Shown here in pieces: positions 1,747-43,420 of a DNA stretch of 64,000 nt. Below the pieces are notes generated by a model that was not told the origin of the DNA, did no database searches, and was given only the letters and a program-made list of their open reading frames with translations. The stretch's first letter is position 1. The number at the start of each line of letters is the position of its first letter. The stretch comes from an uncultured Thermoleophilia bacterium (lineage in GTDB: Bacteria > Actinomycetota > Thermoleophilia > UBA2241): NCBI GenBank assembly GCA_963717965.1, contig CAVQXS010000004.1, positions 1,228 through 65,227 of the forward strand, read 5' to 3'. A program made the translations under genes and the position numbers.

Positions 1747-2379
1747 GTGAGGAAGAAGACTCTTATCATCATCATTGTGGTCGTCGCCATCGCGGCGATC
1801 GCTGCCGCCGGCGCCTTCGCGTGGTGGTCAAATACGGCAACCCTCCCGGACAACACGATCAGCACGGGCGGGATCCACCTGTCAGCCGGTGATTCGGCCA
1901 TGAACTTCACCGGCTTCATGCCTGGCTCCGCCCCACAGACGCAGTGGATGTGGGTGCGTAACGACGGCAGCCAGAACATCATGATGTACGCCTACGTCAG
2001 GGTCCAGGACGGTTGGGATCCTGCTGTCCTCAACTACGTCAACGCGAACATCACGCTTGCGCCCAGCGGCTGGCCGGGCAGCCCCACGGACCTCGCCAAC
2101 AGCCTTGGGGGCACGGCGGGCGGTGGGACCGGCGACTATCCGGTCTATAGCGGCGTCGTCGCCGACCTTCTTGGGGCGGCCAATGGCAAGCTGTACCTCA
2201 GGACGATCACGCCTGACGGAACGACGCAGACGCCGATGACTCCCGGCCAGTACGCACTGTACAAGGTCGTGCTGAGCCTCGACCAGAACACGCCCAACAG
2301 CTTCCAGGACCAGACCGTCAAGTGCGATATCGTGTTCGTTGGCGGCCAGGTCGAGTCAGGGCTGACTCTCGACTTCTGA
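1747..2379 (+). CDS. TasA/camelysin-like secreted protein with a SipW-class signal peptide
   Basis: Basic N-terminus, hydrophobic helix, then GAFAWWSNT...N.ISTGGI.L; PG, VRNDGS and N.FQDQ motifs typical of TasA/CalY-like proteins; GGGGG RBS-like run upstream. Confidence 0.7.
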   Translation: MRKKTLIIIIVVVAIAAIAAAGAFAWWSNTATLPDNTISTGGIHLSAGDSAMNFTGFMPGSAPQTQWMWVRNDGSQNIMMYAYVRVQDGWDPAVLNYVNANITLAPSGWPGSPTDLANSLGGTAGGGTGDYPVYSGVVADLLGAANGKLYLRTITPDGTTQTPMTPGQYALYKVVLSLDQNTPNSFQDQTVKCDIVFVGGQVESGLTLDF

Positions 2380-2647: not shown

Positions 2648-4339
2648 TTGAGGCGGGCGAAGTTCACCTTCGCGTGCTCGCGCTGCGACGCCGTCTTCGC
2701 CGACGCCGACGCCTTGAAGGCCCATGCGCTTGGTCACACCTTCCTTGAGGGCGGCGATAGCGAATGCGCCAACGCGCGGCTCACCGTGACGTTTGCATGC
2801 TCGCGCTGCGGCATGAGCTTCGGCGGCCGCGACGAGTTGAGGGAGCACGCTGTCGCGCACACAGTGCGGCACGCCGATCTGCCGAGTCCCGAGACCCACG
2901 ACGCACCGCGCCGAGCCGCCGGGGCCAGCCCGCGAGCCACGGGTCGCGCATCGTCCTCGTGCCCCCGGCGCTCGCGCTCGCCGTCGCCCCCGCTGCCGCG
3001 CTCGCTGCTCGCGCTCGCCGCGGACGCGGAGTCGCCAAAGCCGCTACTCTTCTGGCCGCCGCGGTGGCGCTGTCCTTGATCGTCGCGTTCGCTGCCGAAT
3101 GCTTGGTGGTTCGCGACACCGGTGGCCATTCCGGCCCAGGTCTCGATGGGGAACTGGGGGGATCACCTCACCTTCAGTCCCGGCTGCTCTCGCGCGATCC
3201 ACACGTCCGGTTCGGGCCGCAACCAGTCGGCGCCATCGCCTCAATCGATTCGCAGGGTAGTCTGTCGCTCGACTTCGGCGACGTTCGTAGCCCCGACTCG
3301 AGTAGCTGGAACGACGTCTTTCGCATGACTTCGAGCGCGCAGACGTCGCTCCAGATCGCCTTCACAACGAGCGGCGCCATTGCGCCCTTCATCCAGAGCG
3401 TCGCGTTCGTCAACGACGCGACGACGGCCACCTGGAGCCGAACAACACCAGGAGCGTCGCGGTGCGACTCCTCGTGCCGCAGAAGATCGCCGCCGATGCG
3501 TACACCGGCACGGTGACGGTGAGGGTCATCGGGAGCAGCGAGAGCTTCGCCGTCCCCCTGACGGTCGCGGTGCTCGGCAAGACACCCCACCCGTGGCCCT
3601 CCACTTCGCCGTCACCGAGTTGCAGCCCCAGCGCGTCACCGAGTTGCAGCCCCAGCGCGTCAGCGAGTTGCAGCCCCAGCGCGTCGCCAGTTGCAGCCCC
3701 AGCGCGTCGCCGAGTTGCAGCCCCAGCGCGTCGCCGAGTTGCAGCCCCAGCGCGTCGCCGAGTTGCAGCCCCAGCGCGTCGCCGAGTTGCAGCCCCAGCG
3801 CGTCGCCGAGTTGCAGCCCCAGCGCGTCACCGAGTTGCAGCCCCAGCGCGTCACCGAGTTGCAGCCCCAGTCCCCCACCGCCGCCGATACGGCTCTTCGA
3901 ATCTCATCCCCGGCCTGTCGACGATCCTGCCGAGGCCGGGCGCGCAGACGCCGCTGCGACCGTGGCCAGCCTGCAGGCCGACGGCACCATCAAGCTCGAC
4001 TTCGGCGAGGTGCCCCGTGCGCAGCGGACAACCTTCGACGACGTGGTGCGCATGACCTCGCGGGCCGGCCGCACCCCCAACGTGAGCCTCGCCATCTCGG
4101 GGCCAGCCGGCGCAGTCGTCCAGTGGGTCGGCTTCTGGGGGGGCAAGCATGAAAGCGACAGCGGCGGACTCACGCTGAAGGCAGGGCACACAGAGCAGCT
4201 TGCTTTCGGGCTCTACGCGCCTTCGAGCACTAACCCTGGAGAGCTGCAGGGCAGCCTGACGATCACAGCAAGGCTTGCCGACGGTCGTGTGCAGCAGCGC
4301 CAACTGCCCATCGTCATCGACGTCGTGACCGCGCACTGA
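2648..4339 (+). CDS. Multi-frameshifted gene: two C2H2 zinc fingers, TM/SipW-like signal segment, and two copies of a beta-rich extracellular domain separated by a (PSCSPSAS)n linker
   Basis: Pieces in ORFs 2648..3079, 2764..3516, 3122..3328, 3462..4055 and 3380..4339 join colinearly. The duplicated motif is ASIDSQGSLSLDFGDV...WNDVFRMTS / ASLQADGTIKLDFGEV...FDDVVRMTS. Confidence 0.6.
3615..3871 (+). repeat. 24-bp tandem repeat, 10 full units plus 1 partial, encoding PSCSPSAS
   Basis: Unit CCGAGTTGCAGCCCCAGCGCGTC(A/G); unit 4 (3687-3709) lacks one G, shifting the frame. Confidence 0.95.
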
Positions 4340-10673: not shown

Positions 10674-13147
10674 CAGGCCTGCTCCTCCGGGTCGTCGAGC
10701 GCGATCGGGTCGTCCTTCATCGGCTGCCAGACGTAGCCGAGGCCGAGCTCGGCGTCGCGCACGTGCGGGACGAGGTCCTTGACCGTCTCGTGCAGCGGGT
10801 CGACGGCGAGCGACTCGCGGATGTAGAGCGACTCGCGCGCCATCGTCGTGCGGCTGTAGCCGGCGAGCTCGAAGAAGTCGGTCTGCTCGAGCGCGTCGTA
10901 GGGGCAGACCTCGACGCACTCGCCGCAGAAGATGCAGCGGCTCTCGTCGAGGTCGTAGCTGCCGAGGATGCGCGGGTTGGTCTCGATCGAGCCGGTCGGG
11001 CAGGTCTCGGCGCACTTGCCGCAGCTCACGCAGCCGACCAGCTGCAGCGGCAGGTTGTCGGCGGTGCTGACGATGGTGTCGAAGCCGCGGTCCATGTTGT
11101 CGTAGCAGCTCGACCCGACCTCCATGCGGCAGACGCGCACGCAGCGGCCGCAATTGATGCAGCGGTTGGGCTCGCGCATGATGAAGTCGTGGCGGAAGTC
11201 GGCCGGGTAGTCGTGGGCGTCGCCGCCGTGGAAGCGGTTCTTGAAGACCTCGTACTCGATGCCGTAGCGCTGCAGGTCGCACTTGCCGCTGGCCGGGCAG
11301 TAGCAGTCGAGGCAGAGCTCGGCGCCGCGCACCGCTTCGTCTTCGCCGAAGCCGAGCTCGATCTGCTTGAAGTTCGTGCGCCGGTCCTCGGGCTCGAGCT
11401 TGGGCATCTCGGCCGGCGGGCTCGGGTGCGTCACGTCGGTGGTCATGTCGATGAACACCGGCGGGATCTCGGCCATGCGCGAGATGCGCGGGTCGAGGTC
11501 GGTCTTGGTGCTCAGCGCGGTGAAGAACGGCGTCGCCTTGAGCTCGGCGAGCGACTGCGAGACGTCCTGCATGTCGGCGCCGCGGAGGTAGGCGTCCATG
11601 CTCCAGGCGGCCTTCTTGCCCTGGGCGATGGCCTGGATCACGGTCTGCGCGCCGAGCACGGCGTCGCCGCCGGCGAACACGCGCGGGTCCTCGGTCTGGA
11701 AGGTCCAGTCGTCGACCTGGATGGTGCGCCACTTGGTGCGTTTGACGCCCTGCTCCTCGCTGGTGCCGTCGAGCTTGGGGTACTGGCCGATGGCGGTGAT
11801 CACCTGGTCGCACTCGACGACGAACTCGGAGCCCTCGATGGGCACGGGGCGGCGGCGGCCGGAGGCGTCGGGCTCGCCGAGCTCCATGCGCAGCATCTCG
11901 ATGCCGGTGACCTTGTTGCCCGCGTCGGTGAGCACCTTGACGGGCGCGCACAGCAGCTCGAGCTTGACGCCCTCCTCCTCGGCCTCGTCGACCTCGGTGA
12001 CATGAGCGGGCATCTCCTTGCGCGAGCGGCGGTAGAGACAGGTGACCTCGGCGGCGCCCTTGCGGAGGCTGGTGCGGCAGGCGTCCATGGCGGTGAAGCC
12101 GCCGCCGATGACGGTGACCTTGTCGCCGACGTGGACGCTGCCGGTGACCTCGAGCTCGCCGAGGAAGTCGACGGCGGTGACGACGCCGTCGGCGTCCTCG
12201 CCGGGGCAGCCCATGTCGTTGCTGTTGAAGGCGCCGAGGGCGAGGAAGACGACGTCGTACTCCTCGAGCAGGTCCTCGAGCTGGTAGTCGACGCCCAGGC
12301 GGCTGTTGACCTGGAGCTCGACGCCCATGCGCCAGAGCACGTTGATCTCCTTGTCGACCAGGTCGCGCGGCAGGCGGTAGCTCGGGATGCCGTAGCGCAG
12401 CATGCCGCCCGGCTTGGGCATGGCCTCGAAGATCTTGACCGCGTGCCCCTCGAGCCGCGCGTAGAAGGCGGCGGCCATGCCGGCAGGCCCGCCGCCGACG
12501 ATGGCGATCTTCTTGCCGGTGTCGGCCTTCGGCTCGACCGGCAGCAGCAGCTCGCCGGTCTGCTCCTCGTCGACCGTCTGGTCGGCCATGAAGCGGTGCA
12601 GCTGGCAGATGGTGATCGGGTGCTCGACCAGCTGCCGGCGGCACGGGCCCTCGCAGGGCCGCGGGCAGACGCGCCCGAGGATAGCCGGGAACGGCAGGTC
12701 CTCGCGCAGCTTGCGCACGCCGTTCTTGTAGTCCTTGTGGGCGATGTAGTCGAGGAACTGCGGGATCTTGATGTGCGTCGGGCAGGCGTCGCGGCAGGGC
12801 GGCGTGCAGAAGGAGTTGTGGTCGCTGAGCAGCAGCTCGAGGTAGAGGTGCCGCATGGCGCGGATCTTCTCGGTGTTGGTGTGCACGACCATGCCGTCGG
12901 AGACGGCCGCGGAGCAGCTCGGGACCAGCTTGCGCGCGCCCTCGACCTCGACGATGCACATGCGGCAGGCGGCGGTGGCCGGCAGGCGCGGCTCGTAGCA
13001 GAGCGTCGGGATGTGGATGCCGATGCGCTGCGCCGCGTCGAGGATCGTGTCGCCGCGCTCGCAGATCACGTCCTGACCGTCGACGGTCAGGGTGATCTGG
13101 CCGGGGCGCGGCGTCGTCTGCGGCACGTTCTCCACCGTCGTCGCCAT
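10673..13147 (-). CDS. NuoG-type Fe-S scaffold with an inserted GltD/NfnB-like FAD/NADP(H) oxidoreductase, fused to the C-terminal half of NuoI
   Basis: N-terminal 2Fe-2S domain (PTLCY...CRMCIVE...PSC); PPCRDACP/GRVCPRPCEGPC; GGGPAG, GGMLRYGIP, GGGFTAMD, YRRS, FAGGD; then CINCGRCVRVC, CVSCGKCAETCP and the NuoI-type YDLDESRCIFCGECVEVCPYDAL...FELA. Confidence 0.85.
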   Translation of the reverse strand: MATTVENVPQTTPRPGQITLTVDGQDVICERGDTILDAAQRIGIHIPTLCYEPRLPATAACRMCIVEVEGARKLVPSCSAAVSDGMVVHTNTEKIRAMRHLYLELLLSDHNSFCTPPCRDACPTHIKIPQFLDYIAHKDYKNGVRKLREDLPFPAILGRVCPRPCEGPCRRQLVEHPITICQLHRFMADQTVDEEQTGELLLPVEPKADTGKKIAIVGGGPAGMAAAFYARLEGHAVKIFEAMPKPGGMLRYGIPSYRLPRDLVDKEINVLWRMGVELQVNSRLGVDYQLEDLLEEYDVVFLALGAFNSNDMGCPGEDADGVVTAVDFLGELEVTGSVHVGDKVTVIGGGFTAMDACRTSLRKGAAEVTCLYRRSRKEMPAHVTEVDEAEEEGVKLELLCAPVKVLTDAGNKVTGIEMLRMELGEPDASGRRRPVPIEGSEFVVECDQVITAIGQYPKLDGTSEEQGVKRTKWRTIQVDDWTFQTEDPRVFAGGDAVLGAQTVIQAIAQGKKAAWSMDAYLRGADMQDVSQSLAELKATPFFTALSTKTDLDPRISRMAEIPPVFIDMTTDVTHPSPPAEMPKLEPEDRRTNFKQIELGFGEDEAVRGAELCLDCYCPASGKCDLQRYGIEYEVFKNRFHGGDAHDYPADFRHDFIMREPNRCINCGRCVRVCRMEVGSSCYDNMDRGFDTIVSTADNLPLQLVGCVSCGKCAETCPTGSIETNPRILGSYDLDESRCIFCGECVEVCPYDALEQTDFFELAGYSRTTMARESLYIRESLAVDPLHETVKDLVPHVRDAELGLGYVWQPMKDDPIALDDPEEQA

Positions 13148-13149
13148 GG

Positions 13150-15069
13150 TCAGGCCTCAGCCCCCTCGGCGGCCGCGCCGGCGACCGCCAGCTCGACGCC
13201 CGAGCGCACCTTGACGGCGTCGAACTTGCAGACCTGGCGGCAGGTGTCGCACTTGATGCAGTTGGCCACGTCGATGACGTGCAGCTGCTTCTTCTCGCCG
13301 CTGATGCACGAGGTGGGGCACTTCTTGGCGCACAGGGTGCAGCCGGTGCAGGCGTCGGCGTCGATGTAGTAGGTGATCAGCGCCTTGCACTTGCCCGCCG
13401 GGCAGCGCTTCTCGCGGATGTGCGCCTCGTACTCGCTGCGGAAGTACTTGATCGTCGTGAGCACGGGGTTCGGGGCGGTGCCGCCGAGCGCGCACAGCGA
13501 GCCGTCGATGATGTAGTGGCCCATCTCCTCGAGGAGCTCGATGTCGCCCTCGCGGCCTTCGCCCTCCTTGATGCGGTCGAGCGTCTCGAGCATGCGCTTG
13601 GTGCCGAGCCGGCAGGGGACGCACTTGCCGCAGCTCTCCTTCTGGGTGAAGTCGAGGAAGAAGCGCGCGAGGTCGACCATGCAGGTCTCTTCGTCGACCA
13701 CGACCATGCCGCCGGAGCCGACGATGGCGCCGGTCGCGGCGAGGCTCTCGTAGTCGACCGGCGTGTCGAGGAGCGAGGCGGGCACGCAGCCGCCGGAGGG
13801 GCCGCCGAGCTGGACGGCCTTGAACTTCTTGCCGTCCTTGATGCCGCCGCCGACGTCGAAGATGAGGTGCCGGAGGCTGGACCCCATCGGCACCTCGACG
13901 AGGCCGCCGTTGACGACCTTGCCGGCGAGGCTGAAGGCCTTGGTGCCGCGGCTGGTCTCGGCGCCGAGCGCGGAGTAGGCCTCGGCGCCGTGCTTGATGA
14001 TCCACGGGACGTTGGAGAACGTCTCGACGTTGTTGATGTTGGTCGGCTTGCCGTAGAGGCCCGACACCGCCGGGAACGGCGGCCGCGTGCGCGGCATGCC
14101 GCGCTTGCCCTCGATCGAGGCGATGAGCGCCGTCTCCTCGCCGCAGACGAAGGCGCCGGCGCCGAGCTTGAGGTGCACGTTGAACTCCCAGCCGGTGCCG
14201 AAGACGTCCTTGCCCAGGAAGCCGCGCTCCTCGGCGGCGGCGACCGCCATGGTGAGGCGCTTGACCGCCTGCGGGTACTCGGCGCGCACGTACACGTACC
14301 CCTCGTGCGCGCCGATCGCGTAGCTGCCGATGATCATGCCCTCGATGACGACGTGCGGGTCGCCCTCGAGGATCGAGCAGTCCATGAACGCGCCGGGGTC
14401 GCCCTCGTCGGCGTTGCAGATGAGGTACTTCTCGTCGCCCGGCGAGGCCGCGGCGAACTTCCACTTGACGCCGGTCGGGAAGCCGGCGCCGCCGCGGCCG
14501 CGGATGCCCGAGTCGGTGACGTGCTCGATGATCCACTCGGGCGTCTGCTCGGTGAGCGCCATGCGCGCCGCCTCGTAGCCGCCGACGGCGATGTACGCGT
14601 CGATGCTCTCCGGGTTGATGACGCCGACGTCGCGCAGGGCGATGCGCGTCTGCGCCTTGTAGAACCCGATGTCGTGCCAGTCGCGGATGCGCTCGCCGCT
14701 CTGCGCGTCCTTGTAGAGGAAGCGCTCGACCGGCGTGCCGCCCTTGAGGTGCTCCTCGACGACCTTGGCGACGTCCCTCGGCTTCAGGTGTCCGTAGAGG
14801 GTGTCGTCGCTGAGCACCACCACCGGGCTCATCGAGCAGAGCCCGTGGCAGCCGATGATGCTGACCTCGACGCTGTCGCCCAGCCCGGCCTCCTGGACCT
14901 CCTGGACGAAGGTGTCGAAGACGGCGAGCGAGCCGGCGAACATGCAGGCGGTGCCGGCGCACACCTTGACGGCGTAGCCGCCGCCGGGGCGCTCGGCCAC
15001 GCTGACGTTGCGGGCGTCCGTGTCCGGACGCGGTGTAGTCGTCTCTTCAGCCATGATCTCTCTGCTCAT
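13150..15069 (-). CDS. nuoF: HydB/BfuB-type NuoF (FMN/NADH subunit with N-terminal 2Fe-2S and C-terminal 2x[4Fe-4S])
   Basis: CAGTAC...CHGLC; RGRGGAGFPTG; NADEGDPGAFMD; GAFVCGEETAL; ESCGKCVPCR; HIREKRCPAGKC; CTGCTLCAKKCP and CIKCDTCRQVC. Confidence 0.92.
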   Translation of the reverse strand: MSREIMAEETTTPRPDTDARNVSVAERPGGGYAVKVCAGTACMFAGSLAVFDTFVQEVQEAGLGDSVEVSIIGCHGLCSMSPVVVLSDDTLYGHLKPRDVAKVVEEHLKGGTPVERFLYKDAQSGERIRDWHDIGFYKAQTRIALRDVGVINPESIDAYIAVGGYEAARMALTEQTPEWIIEHVTDSGIRGRGGAGFPTGVKWKFAAASPGDEKYLICNADEGDPGAFMDCSILEGDPHVVIEGMIIGSYAIGAHEGYVYVRAEYPQAVKRLTMAVAAAEERGFLGKDVFGTGWEFNVHLKLGAGAFVCGEETALIASIEGKRGMPRTRPPFPAVSGLYGKPTNINNVETFSNVPWIIKHGAEAYSALGAETSRGTKAFSLAGKVVNGGLVEVPMGSSLRHLIFDVGGGIKDGKKFKAVQLGGPSGGCVPASLLDTPVDYESLAATGAIVGSGGMVVVDEETCMVDLARFFLDFTQKESCGKCVPCRLGTKRMLETLDRIKEGEGREGDIELLEEMGHYIIDGSLCALGGTAPNPVLTTIKYFRSEYEAHIREKRCPAGKCKALITYYIDADACTGCTLCAKKCPTSCISGEKKQLHVIDVANCIKCDTCRQVCKFDAVKVRSGVELAVAGAAAEGAEA

Positions 15070-15827
15070 CCCTTCTGACCGCCGACCTCTTCCATGAGGT
15101 CGCGGATGATCTTGCGCGTGGCGTCAGGGGTGAGGCCGCCGTAGGTGTTCTCGCCGATGCGCATGACCGGAGCCTGCGAGCAGGCGCCCATGCAGGCGAC
15201 CGACGAGAGCGTGAACTTCATGTCGCTGGTCGTCTTGCCGTCGGCGACCCCGAGCTCCTCCTCCAAGGCCTCGGTGATCTGGACCGCCCCTGCGACGTGG
15301 CAGGCGGTGCCGTGGCAGACGTCGATGATGTGCTCGCCGACCGGCGAGAGCCGGAACTGGTTGTAGAAGCTCGAGACGCCGTAGATCTGGCTGAGCGAGA
15401 CGCCGGTCTGCAGGCTGATCTCCTGGAGGGCGATGCGCGGCAGGTAGCCGTACACCTCCTGGGCGTTCTGCAGCATGGCGATGAGGCCGGTGCCGTGCTC
15501 GTAGTAGTCGTCGAGCACCGGCTGCAGCGCCTTGAGGTCGATGCCCTGCTGGGCCGCGAGACGAGCTTCGCTGATCCGCGCGGCGTTGGGCACCGGCAGC
15601 GTGTACTTGCTCGTGTGGTTCACGCGGATCACCTGCACGGGGCAGTTGCTCTCGCAGAGCGTGCACGAGCGGCAGCGCGGCTCGCCGCTGGACGGGTCGA
15701 TGACCACGCGGAAGAGGCCGCGGCTGCGCGCCGGCAGCAGCTCGCGCTCCTCCGGGTACTGCACGGTGATCTTCTTCATGGGCAGGTGACGCAGCGTCTG
15801 GCGCATCGCCTTGAACATGCCGAGCAT
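15066..15827 (-). CDS. nuoE: Fusion of the N-terminal half of NuoI to a NuoE/HydC-type 2Fe-2S subunit
   Basis: TVQYPEE...RSRG...RCRSCTLCESNCPVQVI (NuoI N-half), then LQNAQEVYGYLP, VCHGTACH, VACMGACSQAP (NuoE). Confidence 0.85.
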   Translation of the reverse strand: MLGMFKAMRQTLRHLPMKKITVQYPEERELLPARSRGLFRVVIDPSSGEPRCRSCTLCESNCPVQVIRVNHTSKYTLPVPNAARISEARLAAQQGIDLKALQPVLDDYYEHGTGLIAMLQNAQEVYGYLPRIALQEISLQTGVSLSQIYGVSSFYNQFRLSPVGEHIIDVCHGTACHVAGAVQITEALEEELGVADGKTTSDMKFTLSSVACMGACSQAPVMRIGENTYGGLTPDATRKIIRDLMEEVGGQKG

Positions 15828-16948
15828 CAGGCGCTCACCACCGGCTGGCGCTCACGCTGCTTGCGCAGGCGGCGCTTGAGGAGCGGGTCGAAGAGCGCGA
15901 CGAAGGCGAAGAAGGCGATCCAGCTGAAGACCGCGAGGCCCCACTTCCAGCTGGGCACCCAGAGGATGATCGCCGCCGTGGCGAGGATGTTCACGAGCCC
16001 GAGCGGGATGAGGATCTTCCAGGCGAAGGCCATGAGCTGGTCGACCTGGAGGCGCGGCAGCGAGAGCCGGATCCAGACCAGCGCGAACACGAGCACGTAG
16101 GTCTTGGCGAGGAACCAGACGATGCCGATCCAGTCGACGCCCCAGAAGTCGATGGCGCCGGCGAACGGCCCCATCCAGCCGCCGAAGAAGAGCGTCACGG
16201 CGACCATCGACATGATCGTCATGCCGGCGTACTCGTTGAGGAAGAACATGCCGAAGCGCATGCCCGAGTACTCGGTGCCGTAGCCGGACACGAGCTCGGA
16301 CTCCGACTCGGGGAGGTCGAACGGGCCGCGGTTCAGCTCGGCGATGGAGGCGATGTAGAAGATGAGGAAGCTGAAGGGCGCGTAGAAGACGATCCACTCG
16401 TAGCCGGACTGGAAGGCGACGACGGCCTCGATGCGCAGCGACCCGACGACCATCGCCACGATGAGGAGGCCGAGGATCATCGGGATCTCGTAGCTGATCA
16501 TCTGGGCGGCGGCGCGCAGCGCCCCCACCAGCGAGTACTTGTTGCGCGACGACCAGCCGCCGAGGAGGATCGAGAGCGTCGTGAAGCTGGTGATCGCGAC
16601 GAGGAAGATGATGCCGACGTTGAGGCTGGTCGCCATGAGCCCGCCGGTGTAGGGGATCACCAGCTGGATGGCGACCGCGCCGATCATCACCGTGACCGGC
16701 GCGAGCGTGAACAGGAACGGGTCGGCGAGCAGCGGGCGGAAGTCCTCCTTGCCCATCATCTTGAAGGCGTCGGCGATGCTCTGCAGCACGCCGTGCGGCC
16801 CGGTGCGGTTGGGGCCGTGGCGGTCCTGCATGAACGCCAGGGCGCGGCGCTCGAAGACGATGTTGACGAGCGCCGCCACGAACACCACCGCGTAGGAGAT
16901 GACGACGAAGAGGATGGCCCGGAGGATGCCGACGATGATGTCCACCAT
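15827..16948 (-). CDS. nuoH: NADH-quinone oxidoreductase subunit H
   Basis: ERRALAFMQDRHGPNRTGP, RAAAQMISYEIP, AELNRGPFDLPESESELVSG. Confidence 0.95.
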   Translation of the reverse strand: MVDIIVGILRAILFVVISYAVVFVAALVNIVFERRALAFMQDRHGPNRTGPHGVLQSIADAFKMMGKEDFRPLLADPFLFTLAPVTVMIGAVAIQLVIPYTGGLMATSLNVGIIFLVAITSFTTLSILLGGWSSRNKYSLVGALRAAAQMISYEIPMILGLLIVAMVVGSLRIEAVVAFQSGYEWIVFYAPFSFLIFYIASIAELNRGPFDLPESESELVSGYGTEYSGMRFGMFFLNEYAGMTIMSMVAVTLFFGGWMGPFAGAIDFWGVDWIGIVWFLAKTYVLVFALVWIRLSLPRLQVDQLMAFAWKILIPLGLVNILATAAIILWVPSWKWGLAVFSWIAFFAFVALFDPLLKRRLRKQRERQPVVSA

Positions 16949-30392: not shown

Positions 30393-30467
30393 GCCCATGA
30401 CAATGACCATTCCAGGACGACAGCAGGGACGGCGGGCATCCATGCAGGCCTATGTCGGCGAGGACTC

Positions 30468-31806
30468 ATGAGTGCCGCCATCGCTCTGTTGAGGGCATTC
30501 GTCAACTCGCCGCGGGCCTTCATCGCGAAGGCGCGAGAGGTCGCCCAGCGGATGGAGCGTGGGGAGAGCTCCCTGGACGCGAGTGCTGGCCCTTGTCCCG
30601 TCCGCGACGACCTTCCGGGTCTTCAGTGGCGAAACGCCCGGGTGCTGGGGGGCGAGGCCACCCTTGACGTGATGGTGCCCGGGCTGCAGATGAAGCACCT
30701 CTCGGGTGGCCCGAACACCGCGCTCAATCTGACCTACCGACTGGCGGCGGCCGGGGTCCCTGTGCGCTTCGTGTCGACAGACCTTCCGCCAGATGGCGAA
30801 GAGGTGCTCCTGAGGCACTGTGCAGAGCTGACCAGGATCACGCAGCGGCCTGCGCATGTCAGCGTGGCCTCCATGCATGACCGGAGCAGAGTCCGCCCAT
30901 GTCGGTCGCTCGGACATGCTCCTGGCCACCGCCTGGTGGACGGCGCAATACTCGGCCCGTCTTCTGGACGACATTGATGCTGACGAGTTCATCTACATGA
31001 TCCAGGACTTCGAGCCGGGGTTCTACAAGTGGTCTACCGAGTACGCCTTGGCGATGGAGACCTACAACATGCGGATCCGCCCCGTGATCTGCGGAGAGCT
31101 CCTCGCAGAGTACCTTGCCGAGGCCAGGCTCGGCCGATTCGCCGACAAGGGGTTCGCGGAGTCGTCTCTGGTGTTCGAGCCGGCCATCGACCGGTCGCGA
31201 TTCCATCCAGCTGCCCGACGTGACCCGGATGGCCCGCATCGTCTGCTCTTCTACGCTCGTCCCGAAGCGCCACGGAACCTGTTCGAGATGGGCCTGCTGG
31301 CACTACGAGAGGTGGTCGATCGAGGCGCGGTCGCCGCAGCGGAATGGGACCTTTGGTTCATCGGGGGAGCCGTCCCGCCGCGTGATCTGGGGCGCGGCGT
31401 CGTCATCAGACAACACCCATGGCTTGACTACGACCGCTACGCGGCGCTTCTGCGGTCCTGCGATGTCGGCGTGTCGCTCATGCTCTCCCCGCACACCAGC
31501 TACCCCCCGCTGGAGATGGCGGCCTGCGGCGCCTCAGTGGTGACCAACACCTTTGCCAACAAGACGGCAGAGAGGTTGCGCAGCTACTCGCAGAACCTGC
31601 TGCCCGTCGAACCGACGGTCAGGTCGATCGCGGACGGGATAGCCGAAGCTGTGGCGCGGACGGCGGACGTCGCCGCACGCGAGCAGGGGAGCAACGTCAA
31701 GGTGCCCGCGACCTGGGAAGACTCCTTCAAACCCGTCATCCCGCACCTGGTGAACGTGTGGGAGACGCATGTCGGGCGGGCGGGCGCAGTCGGCACACCA
31801 CGGTGA
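30468..31806 (+). CDS. WsaF-like rhamnosyltransferase (GT4 fold); frameshift near 30880
   Basis: SGGPNTAL in the first frame; ATAWWTA, YMIQDFEPGFY, FYARP, SPHTSYPPLEMAACG in the second. Confidence 0.8.
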
Positions 31807-42265: not shown

Positions 42266-43289
42266 TCTGCGCGCCGCGTGAATGCGCCCGACGGTTGTCG
42301 AGCCTCGCCAACTGCCGTGTCTCATCGGCGCCTGCGGAACTCTGTACCTCAAGCCCAAGAGCCTGCAGCAGCATCTGCGCCCCCAGGATGATCGGCACGA
42401 CCGCGATCATGACTGTACCGGCGGTAGCACGTGGCCCGTGACCGTCGACTCCACCCAGCGATACGCGCCGAAGATGACGCCGAAGAGGAAGAAGACGGCC
42501 CTCTGAACGTGAGCATGGCGATGAGGCCGAAGTCATTGACGACGTGGCGTTTGACGAACCGCCAGGCGAATCGGCGCAGCAGACGGAGGGGAAAGGTCCA
42601 CGCCACGCGGCCGATGCGCAGCGTCGATGACTCGTGAGCCGTAGAGAGCGGCGGTGCTCACGTCGACGACACGGGCATCGATGACGTTGAGGCGAATGAG
42701 CATGTCGTTCTCGAAGAAGTAGTCCTGCGCCAGGCCGTCGAGCTTGAGTCGAGCGAAGGGTCGCCGCCGTGACGGCGGTGAATCCGCACTGTGGGATCGA
42801 ACACGTGCCAGTAGCCACTCGCCACCTTCGTCAGGAACGAGAGCACGACGTTCCCGAACCAGCGGGGCGAGGCATGTCGGTGGGACGGCCGGAGCGACGG
42901 AAGCGGTTGCCCTTGATGTAGTCGGCCGGCCGCCGCTCAGATCGGGGCACCAGGAGGACCGCAAGCTCTCCCGCGTCCATCTGCTCGTCGGCGTCCATCT
43001 TGACGACGACATCGTAGCCGGCCTCGAGGGCGGCCCGTAGCCGGTGAACGCATGGCGGCGCCGACGCCCCGTTGGCCTCCCGATGGATGACCTGCACTCG
43101 GGGGTCCGGGAGGGCCCGAGCCACATCCAGCGTGTCATCGGTGCTGGCGTCGTCGACGATGTGATGCGGTCGATCCAGCCGGCAGACCAACGACGACGGC
43201 CGCCAGATGGCGGGACTCGTTGTGCGCGGGGAGGACCACAGCGACGCGCGCCGAAACCGAACGCCGAGTCTTCCGACGTCGGGCTCCAT
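42258..43289 (-). pseudogene. DPM1/GtrB-like GT2 with C-terminal TM segments, heavily frameshifted (pseudogene or poor sequence)
   Basis: Fragments IVDDASTD, VVVKMDADEQM, KGNRF, LTKVASGYW, YFFENDML and TAGTVMIAVVPIILGAQMLLQA lie in different frames. Confidence 0.7.
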
Positions 43290-43420
43290 CACCCCGTTCC
43301 GGCAGTTGATCAAGGCTCCCGGGCCTGCAGAGGCACGCTCATCTCGAGTCGCCGATATTACTGCGTTTAGGGGCTGCGTCGCTCACCTCGGCGAAGCAGC
43401 CCGAGCTCTAGGATGACTGC

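Follow-up and report, generated by a model that had tools for sequence, protein, structure and literature searches.

A C2H2 zinc-finger membrane protein encoded beside a TasA-like gene in Thermoleophilia-like Actinomycetota: a candidate TapA-like fibre accessory

Classical C2H2 zinc fingers are rare in bacteria. Here, we describe a gene at positions 2648-4339 of a 64,000-nucleotide stretch of DNA (the window) from contig 4 of an uncultured Thermoleophilia bacterium, which joins two such fingers to a membrane helix and extracellular domains and lies directly downstream of a TasA-like gene. The genome (G000) comprises 2.65 Mb in 13 contigs with 68% GC; coordinates are window positions unless a locus is named. 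The known bacterial C2H2 family, Ros/MucR, comprises soluble regulators of alpha-proteobacteria, which have a single finger of divergent type (PMC9779718). For the extracellular part, the closest described system is TapA (YqxM) of Bacillus subtilis, which is encoded with its fibre subunit TasA. TasA assembles by donor-strand exchange (PMC9674648). TapA depends on the peptidase SipW, is membrane-associated and donates its N-terminus to TasA while its own immunoglobulin (Ig) fold is already complete (PMC10151520). Since its Ig-type domain is complete, TapA starts rather than extends the fibre.

The best explanation as a whole, to which we give somewhat more than an even chance, is that the product of the finger gene is an envelope protein with type-II (N-in) topology, belongs to a small family of Thermoleophilia-like Actinomycetota and serves as a TapA-like fibre initiator and/or anchor. 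A preliminary description of the window, made from the letters alone, had suggested a TapA-like accessory, and this idea gains support from the conserved gene order at nine of nine assessable loci, from the likeness of the two proteins behind their signal helices and from a complex model that beats its controls.

One gene from the fingers to the extracellular domains

The gene begins with TTG at 2648 in frame 2 of the + strand. Several of its parts were delimited with the help of G023, a genome of the same genus with an intact copy.

2648..2920, + strand, frame 2: predicted cytoplasmic N-terminus with fingers 1 and 2 (Pfam and PDB sequence matches)
2921..3096, + strand, frame 1: linker, basic stretch and membrane helix (tblastn of the intact G023 open reading frame)
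3097..3232 (3098-3232 coding), + strand, frame 2: post-membrane segment beginning NAWWFATPVAIPAQVSMGNWGDHLTFSPG (tblastn with G023 and 25 homologues)
3235..3593, + strand, frame 1 (3235-3423), then frame 0 (3426-3593): beta-sandwich domain A
3610..3870, + strand: (SPSCSPSA)n stalk or spacer, 10.9 tandem copies of a 24-nucleotide unit (Tandem Repeats Finder)
3890..4339, + strand, frame 0 (~3900-3956), then frame 2 (3959-4336), stop codon 4337-4339: beta-sandwich domain B

Finger 1 (FACSRCDAVFADADALKAHALGH, 2669-2737) and finger 2 (FACSRCGMSFGGRDELREHAVAH, 2792-2860), both in frame 2 of the + strand, fit the spacing F-x-C-x2-C-x3-F-x5-L-x2-H-x3-H exactly, as had been noticed before, and the scan for zf-C2H2 proposed at that time puts two Pfam models above their curated cut-offs, each with two stretches (hmmscan; zf-C2H2_4, PF13894, 33.2 bits against 27; zf-C2H2, PF00096, 32.7 bits against 25.2). 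The nearest PDB sequences are eukaryotic or designed C2H2 arrays, that is Aart (E 1.1e-14), ZBTB24 (8.2e-10), CTCF and ZNF568. The finger fold was predicted on a relative, P0013 (568 amino acids, 24-row alignment), rather than on the window copy; its AlphaFold2 model has two beta-beta-alpha fingers (strands 8-9 and 16-17 with helix 20-30; strands 49-50 and 57-58 with helix 61-70) at a predicted local distance difference test score (pLDDT) of 81-85. In exact spacing, hidden Markov model (HMM) scores above cut-off and predicted beta-beta-alpha fold the fingers are thus like the eukaryotic ones. In contrast to those, they sit on a membrane protein and form no TGEKP-linked array: in the window 18 residues, without a TGEKP-type linker, separate the last His of finger 1 from the Phe of finger 2. 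Unlike Ros/MucR, the protein is membrane-bound, and no Ros/MucR family appeared in the Pfam output for the window open reading frame (ORF) and the 22 aligned family members.

Behind the fingers, the linker reads RIVLVPPALA, resembling the family motif PRV..P.ELS, and is followed by the basic stretch ARARRGRG and by the hydrophobic helix already recognized from the letters (~3031-3096, frame 1). That the fingers of this family are on the cytoplasmic side is suggested by the basic residues in front of the helix. The next segment (3101-3232, frame 2) had been reconstructed as A-W-W-F-(R-D-T)...V-S-M-G-N-W. It is present, and its AWWF...SMGNWG does resemble AFAWWSNT...ISTGG of the upstream protein (1747-2379), but 'R-D-T' came from a wrong frame; the homology-supported reading of the AWWF...VSMGNWG segment is AWWFATPVAIPAQVSMGNWGDHLTFSPG. 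The whole stretch 3097-3232 is a candidate for a SipW-type cleavage region plus donor strand. The two domains with the pattern G.L.LDFG...DV.RMTS that the preliminary description had seen correspond to domain A (3235-3593) and domain B (~3890-4336), which share 32% identity (E 2.2e-6). Domain A is 41-63% identical to the 25 homologues and the G023 relative, with identical boundaries in all of them. Domain B starts in frame 0 with IPGLSTILP, matching PGLS.VLP of the family, and the homologues carry SPSP or TCSP spacers at the place of the SPSCSPSA repeats.

In this assembly, the reading frame is interrupted by at least seven one-base shifts (~2921, 3097, 3233, 3423, 3688, 3900 and 3956), the sum of which is zero. 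They were located by a frame plot of the GC content at third codon positions (GC3), by tblastn of the intact G023 relative and by tblastn of the 25 database homologues; the homologues and the relative place the frame boundaries identically. The path runs through frame 2 (to ~2920), 1 (~2921-3096), 2 (3098-3232), 1 (3235-3423), 0 (3426 to ~3688), 2 (~3689-3899), 0 (3900-3956) and again 2 (3959-4336). A frameshift near 2920 had been postulated earlier; a break at this position is supported by an extra G in a relative's short-read contig, but it is only one of the seven or more.

Despite these breaks, fingers, membrane helix and extracellular domains are one gene, not two. The fusion of the fingers to the secreted part, as postulated before, is found in a single frame in five genomes, with open frames of 601-878 amino acids. 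In G023, an intact ORF, 561 amino acids long when counted from its GTG start, matches the fingers, the helix and both domains; its order is one finger, linker, helix, ASA followed by WFTASATT..STGTWGNYLSF, domain A, TCSP spacer, domain B and a Pro/Ser tail. Single open frames of 850, 878, 700 and 626 amino acids are present in G403, G183, G240 and G373, respectively. From a collection of 5.8 billion proteins, 25 homologues were retrieved at E <= 3e-33, all from metagenome-assembled genomes (MAGs) or metagenomes. Homologues that keep fingers, transmembrane segment and extracellular part, which the preliminary description had wished to see, are therefore at hand: zf-C2H2 is found in 15 of the 22 aligned members (E <= 0.01), with two fingers in 11 and one in four of them by alignment. 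Five of the seven finger-less members start at or next to the membrane helix or the following motif and a sixth starts inside the linker, which suggests that these six gene calls are truncated.

Members of the family occur only in Thermoleophilia-like Actinomycetota; the family profile matched in 22 of 401 genomes sampled across the class, and 17 of the 22 fall into the genome family of the window. These relatives, the 68% GC and the bacterial synteny rule out a eukaryotic contamination. On the inside, the members have a putatively cytoplasmic N-terminus with one or two C2H2 fingers, the conserved linker, a basic stretch and a single helix. Just outside the membrane follows A-x-A and then [WYA][WF][TS]..S...STGTWG, homologous to the mature start of the TasA-like protein, and further outside are one to four complete Ig-like A domains and a B domain. 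Most relatives add a Pro/Ser stalk and a hydrophobic C-terminus, among them P0004-P0007, P0012 and others, and one subgroup has RRRKRST behind the hydrophobic C-terminus, an arrangement resembling a C-terminal membrane anchor that lacks LPXTG.

The TasA-like neighbour and a TapA-like mechanism

The extracellular part has to be seen together with the gene upstream of it.

1747..2379, + strand: TasA-like fibre subunit gene, 210 amino acids, signal helix and then AFA followed by WWSNTATLPDNTISTGG

A TasA-like gene is located directly upstream of the finger gene in all nine loci that could be assessed (the window, G023, L025 of G240, G403, G183, G054, G310, G245 and G295); one further locus ends at a contig edge. 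The AlphaFold2 model of the upstream protein has low confidence (mean pLDDT 54.8, predicted template modelling score 0.50). With this model, the only Foldseek match at E <= 1e-3 was the TasA fibre 8aur_A (1.7e-4, template modelling score (TM) 0.39/0.36), and archaeal CanA was found at ranks 3 and 47, which is the likeness to TasA/camelysin fibres and archaeal TasA-like pili. The finger protein itself differs from TasA: instead of the TasA jellyroll, it has sandwich domains of a generic Ig/ASH-like type, and Peptidase_M73 matched none of the 22 finger-family members. In the neighbour, this family (Peptidase_M73/TasA-camelysin, PF12389) scored 14.6 bits against a cut-off of 22.5 (E 0.029; N-terminal 72 residues only). 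A scan with TIGR04088, the model of the SipW-cognate signal, had also been proposed; it gave 17.9 bits for the TasA-like neighbour, below the cut-off of 19, and no match at E <= 0.1 in any of the 22 members. The finger protein would work like TapA/TasA with SipW but is outside the curated SipW-signal and camelysin families by their thresholds.

The motif consisting of a helix, A-x-A and aromatic-aromatic-Ser/Thr is present in the window and eight relatives. The residues that follow A-x-A in the neighbour and in the finger protein form the pairs WW/WW in the window, G403 and G054, AF/WF in G023, YF/WF in G240, YY/YF in G183 and FW/WW in G245; the second mature residue is the same in both proteins in six of the seven genomes (W/W in four, F/F in two). 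Because the genomes are related, this likeness is a hint to which no statistic can be attached. L025 also encodes a paralogue without fingers, in which an ordinary N-terminal signal ending in NAYFTD precedes the same domain A. The motif behind the helix of the finger proteins is thereby shown to correspond to the region in which a normal signal peptide is cleaved. A SipW-type peptidase is encoded in the window's genome on contig 13 (TIGR02228, 66 bits against a cut-off of 51.85), and in L025 such a peptidase (59.7 bits) lies inside the operon with the TasA-like gene and the finger protein. The cluster on contig 13 (L023 8900-14312), the canonical one of this genome, comprises a TasA-like gene, the SipW-type peptidase (186 amino acids), two more TasA-like genes and a 981-amino-acid Ig-repeat protein; all members except the peptidase have the same signal type.

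In the P0013 model, the fingers are followed by a disordered linker, a helix (123-150), a low-confidence stretch covering AWWTTSASISA and two confidently predicted sandwiches (pLDDT > 90); domain A is a complete sandwich. Among the 22 family members, Pfam matches were to Glyco_hydro_123_N_2 (13), NPCBM_assoc (8) and WxLIP_PGBD (6). Foldseek with the two-domain model returned CEP192 SPD-2, the pilin CfaB, RbmA and WxLIP with a query TM of at most 0.20, and a search of the ESM Atlas gave no usable match. As modelled, the sandwiches are generic and Ig/ASH-like, and Foldseek yields no specific function for the ectodomain.

The docking of the post-membrane strand was modelled with the G023 pair, that is the core of the TasA-like protein (residues 41-226, its own N-terminal strand removed) and the ectodomain of the finger protein (residues 108-268). 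The score was 0.72 (0.72, 0.69 and 0.80 in the runs), and the best of three controls reached 0.00. The mark for this score was reached by 116 of 157 solved complexes and by two of 215 mismatched pairs, counts that hold only roughly here since our own alignments were used. The runs share at least 80% of the contacts, the pLDDT of the partner is at least 88, and partner residues 109-125 run along residues 208-223 and 45-67 of the TasA-like protein in donor-strand geometry. The model supports binding of the post-membrane strand to the TasA-like subunit.

From this we infer cleavage, strand donation and a role of the fingers as follows. The SipW-type signal peptidase, encoded on another contig, probably cuts after A-x-A and would thereby free the donor strand. 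The post-membrane segment most likely then completes the fold of the first TasA-like subunit, and the finger protein would initiate the fibre, anchor it or do both, in the manner of TapA with TasA. The finger module would be a cytoplasmic handle that most likely serves contacts with other proteins or regulation on the inner side of the membrane, rather than the sequence-specific reading of DNA. The likeness to TapA lies in gene order, strand and model. The finger genes show the same order as tapA and its fibre subunit gene; the segment after the TapA signal is homologous to the donor strand of the subunit, and the finger proteins have homologous post-membrane strands; and to the complete Ig-type domain of TapA corresponds a complete sandwich in the P0013 model, together with a strand-docking model that passes its controls. 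In contrast to TapA, the finger proteins place ~100-190 cytoplasmic residues with C2H2 fingers before the helix and have a B domain besides one to four repeated A domains; in many of them, a stalk and a hydrophobic C-terminal end are added, and the peptidase gene is usually elsewhere in the genome.

The finger module on other membrane proteins

The fingers of this family are part of a module: a finger, usually F.C[ST][HR]CGA.F..RW.LRAHL.EH, and behind it W..P..(K/R).RV..(V/I)P.ELS.R (alignment A4). Loci that match only the finger and the linker turned out to be other membrane proteins, and one further protein carries the finger alone; all of these hosts are from related Actinomycetota MAGs.

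L031 5965-6813: LepB-type signal peptidase I, N-terminal module (Peptidase_S26 158 bits; TIGR02227 147 bits against a cut-off of 47)
L033 2840-3409: LepB-type signal peptidase I, N-terminal module (assigned by close likeness to L031)
L028 5344-6177, L032 5302-6186 and P0061: DUF5317 proteins, C-terminal module
P0057: polytopic protein of 858 amino acids, N-terminal module (zf-C2H2_4 36.1 bits)
P0089: multi-helix protein of 258 amino acids, N-terminal module
L025 4009-4839: SipW-type peptidase, finger only, in the C-terminal tail and without the linker (hhalign 95.4%, E 1.7e-8, 23 columns)

The module is always at a terminus of its host, before the first or after the last predicted membrane helix, and in the hosts outside the finger family a cytoplasmic location is to be expected from the usual topology of such proteins. 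A search of 1.84 billion representatives with the module profile gave 1984 matches at E <= 1e-3. These are mostly many-finger proteins that cover profile positions 1-23 only; the whole module is present in 10 of the best 150. In the window's genome, the PF13894 scan revealed no further finger and the module profile found only the window gene. The SipW-type peptidase of G310 has no finger, and the fusion of finger and SipW-type peptidase was seen in one genome only. Its occurrence on signal peptidases, DUF5317 proteins and other membrane proteins suggests that the module serves as a cytoplasmic tag of general use and argues against a DNA reader specific to the fibre. At the positions that we take to be the base-reading ones of a Zif268-type finger, the window has Asp, Ala, Glu or Gly and the family D/N, an invariant Trp, R/G and A/E. 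Since these residues are acidic or small in the window, we read the module as a handle for interaction or regulation.

Small stand-alone proteins with two fingers were found in L013, L015, L016 and L017 (G022, G019, G015 and G002). Their open frames have 114-154 amino acids, with GHP.EWDK behind the fingers, and G015 has four copies. They are a second, apparently soluble use of classical fingers in the genus of the window.

Frame breaks, alternative readings and significance

Short-read contigs of relatives from four metagenome runs (X1-X4), which are 88-99% alike to the window and informative where they cover it, differ from the window by exactly one compensating base at six of the seven predicted break sites.

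GGGG run 2921-2924, + strand: break 1; the X4 contig has an additional G behind 2920
3097, + strand: break 2, an extra G; absent from X1 contigs, in which the loose end ...GCTGCC runs straight into 3098
3232/3233, + strand: break 3; X4 has an additional C behind 3232
~3423, + strand: break 4; X2 and X3 have an additional G behind 3422, X4 behind 3425
~3688, + strand: break 5 (frame 0 to 2); one 24-nucleotide repeat unit reads 'ccag' where the others read 'ccgag', a G missing
3900, + strand: break 6; the X2 contig has one base fewer
3956, + strand: break 7; X2 has an additional C behind 3956

The indels of the window are probably errors of the assembly consensus rather than signs of decay. Ten genomes were followed through for the family gene: five, the window included, split it over frames, and five read it in one frame. 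In the sibling MAG G245 (L027 6469-7400), the same G is lost (TTGGAC to TTGAC) in each of three near-identical domain-A repeats, which looks like a systematic consensus error in that context. Between strains, the finger region has been under purifying selection, since six of the nine listed substitutions against the relatives' contigs (2689-2794) fall on third codon positions. In the same window, ymdB (437-1208, - strand) is frameshifted near 1133: MNILFVADIFGKPGREALLRWLPGF is read from ATG 1208 in one frame and the remainder, which covers positions 18-251 of the Pfam YmdB profile with 308.8 bits, in another. This shift is either evidence of assembly indel errors or else marks a second broken gene. 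Further frame breaks are possible in WsaF (30393-31803) and in a GT2 glycosyltransferase gene (42834-43382).

That the window copy is a true pseudogene, inactivated by slippage in this strain in a family that is functional elsewhere, is unlikely but by no means negligible. At least seven indels are crowded within ~1.1 kb, nuoN, nuoM and nuoL alongside and most other genes of the window read through, and each of the seven alters the length of a short run, as slippage in nature also does; the deposited consensus is uncheckable, for no public sequencing run has more than 0.11 of the region's words. Decay is, however, hard to reconcile with a GC3 that stays at 0.8-0.95 in each local frame, with segments that all keep their 41-63% identity to the relatives, and with the occurrence of one-base shifts only, without a stop, deletion or insertion. 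The shifts add up to zero, so that start and end frames agree; the conserved ymdB is likewise shifted; and the gene is split in four other MAGs, in one of them by the apparently systematic loss just described. Programmed frameshifting was judged implausible, as the relatives read straight through. The breaks could also be taken at face value, as borders between genes; two or more of them would then encode a soluble zinc-finger protein of small size (2648-3079) and, behind it, independent secreted proteins. Distinct ORFs are indeed listed at 2648-3079, 2764-3516, 3462-4055 and 3380-4339, but they overlap in different frames and none contains more than part of a domain, the 25 homologues and the G023 relative cross every boundary, and intact fusions exist in the five genomes; this reading is almost certainly wrong.

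A different role for the intact protein would be to stay uncleaved in the membrane as a sensor or regulator resembling ToxR/CadC or anti-sigma factors, with the Ig-like ectodomain sensing something outside and DNA or a cytoplasmic factor as the target of the fingers. Alternatively, site-1 cleavage by signal peptidase and subsequent regulated intramembrane proteolysis would release the fingers, as in RsiV/RsiP. The topology, a cytoplasmic zinc domain, one helix and an ectodomain, fits, the finger helix of many members is Arg-rich (RW.LRAH), and signal peptidase carries out the site-1 cleavage of the anti-sigma factors RsiV and RsiP (PMC4183432 and PMC8844934). With RsiV/RsiP the finger protein thus shares the type-II topology, the effector domain in the cytoplasm and the possibility of a cut by signal peptidase directly outside the helix. 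It differs from them in having an ectodomain built like that of a fibre accessory and neither a nearby sigma partner nor an anti-sigma domain: no sigma factor or regulator gene stands beside the window gene, none of the 59 window ORF pieces scanned is a sigma gene, and no zf-HC2 or other anti-sigma domain was matched by Pfam in the window ORF or the 22 family members. Against DNA reading by the fingers also speak the residues at the presumed base-reading positions given above, the sufficiency of one finger in four of the 15 finger-bearing members, the inter-finger spacer, which across the family consists of ~18 variable residues without TGEKP, and the presence of the same module on enzymes such as signal peptidase I. 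We consider such a sensor improbable.

It is tempting to speculate one step further, on what we regard as a long shot, that the lineage uses the C2H2 finger as a docking or signalling tag for proteins of envelope biogenesis, with a pairing of peptidase and substrate and a signal coupled to cleavage. In the L025 operon, the peptidase has the finger alone and the substrate carries the module ahead of its signal-anchor. Contacts between fingers, or of fingers with a shared partner, might pair the peptidase with its substrate, and the cut that frees the donor strand outside would leave or release a zinc-finger fragment inside. If true, this would be a secretion-coupled signal of fibre initiation.

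Several observations weigh against the interpretation as a TapA-like initiator or anchor that we prefer. In contrast to most homologues, the window copy ends behind domain B without a Pro/Ser-rich tail or an anchor at the C-terminus, and its seven indels in 1.1 kb stand against one certain (ymdB) and two possible ones in the remaining ~60 kb. The TIGR04088 threshold is not reached and the signal motif is internal rather than N-terminal; the assignment of the neighbour as TasA-like is based on a poor model (pLDDT 54.8) and sub-threshold HMM matches. In the window's genome, G023, G183 and G310, the SipW-type peptidase is on a different contig from the finger gene; in L025 alone are the two adjacent. 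The complex model may have passed through likeness to, or memory of, the TasA fibre, whose structure is solved, and it shows compatibility, not specificity, because the homologous strand of the subunit had been removed. Finally, with the Arg-rich helix of many members, the fingers may bind nucleic acid or lipid.

Elsewhere in the window, two regions deserve mention. Within the nuo row, 10676-15851 (- strand) encodes an 827-amino-acid protein that joins Fer2_4, Fer4_20, Pyr_redox_2 and 4Fe-4S; it adjoins a NuoF-like protein of 657 amino acids with extra ferredoxin domains, an unusual electron-input module for a complex I operon. A large surface-polysaccharide cluster occupies 25064-51916, with Bac_transf, an epimerase, several glycosyltransferases (GT2/GT4), DUF2142, WsaF, a Wzt/Wzm ABC exporter, an FkbM methyltransferase, GtrA and Wzy_C-TPR.

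In the literature covered, which excludes subscription journals, neither signal peptidases nor TasA-associated proteins were found to be described as bearers of C2H2 fingers. We read the finger protein as a probable TapA-like accessory with a lineage-specific zinc-finger tag that is common to the secretion machinery. The frame breaks have a practical side: surface genes with repeats can be badly frame-broken in MAGs of few contigs, and annotation would miss the whole architecture. The fingers described here are not a stray transcription factor but a conserved module, finger plus W..P..PRV..P.ELS linker, on membrane proteins that build the surface, and they offer a case in which the function of a eukaryote-type finger tethered to a bacterial membrane can be tested. 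If the preferred reading is right, the family would also provide a TapA-like fibre initiator in Actinomycetota, in which TasA-type matrices are little studied.

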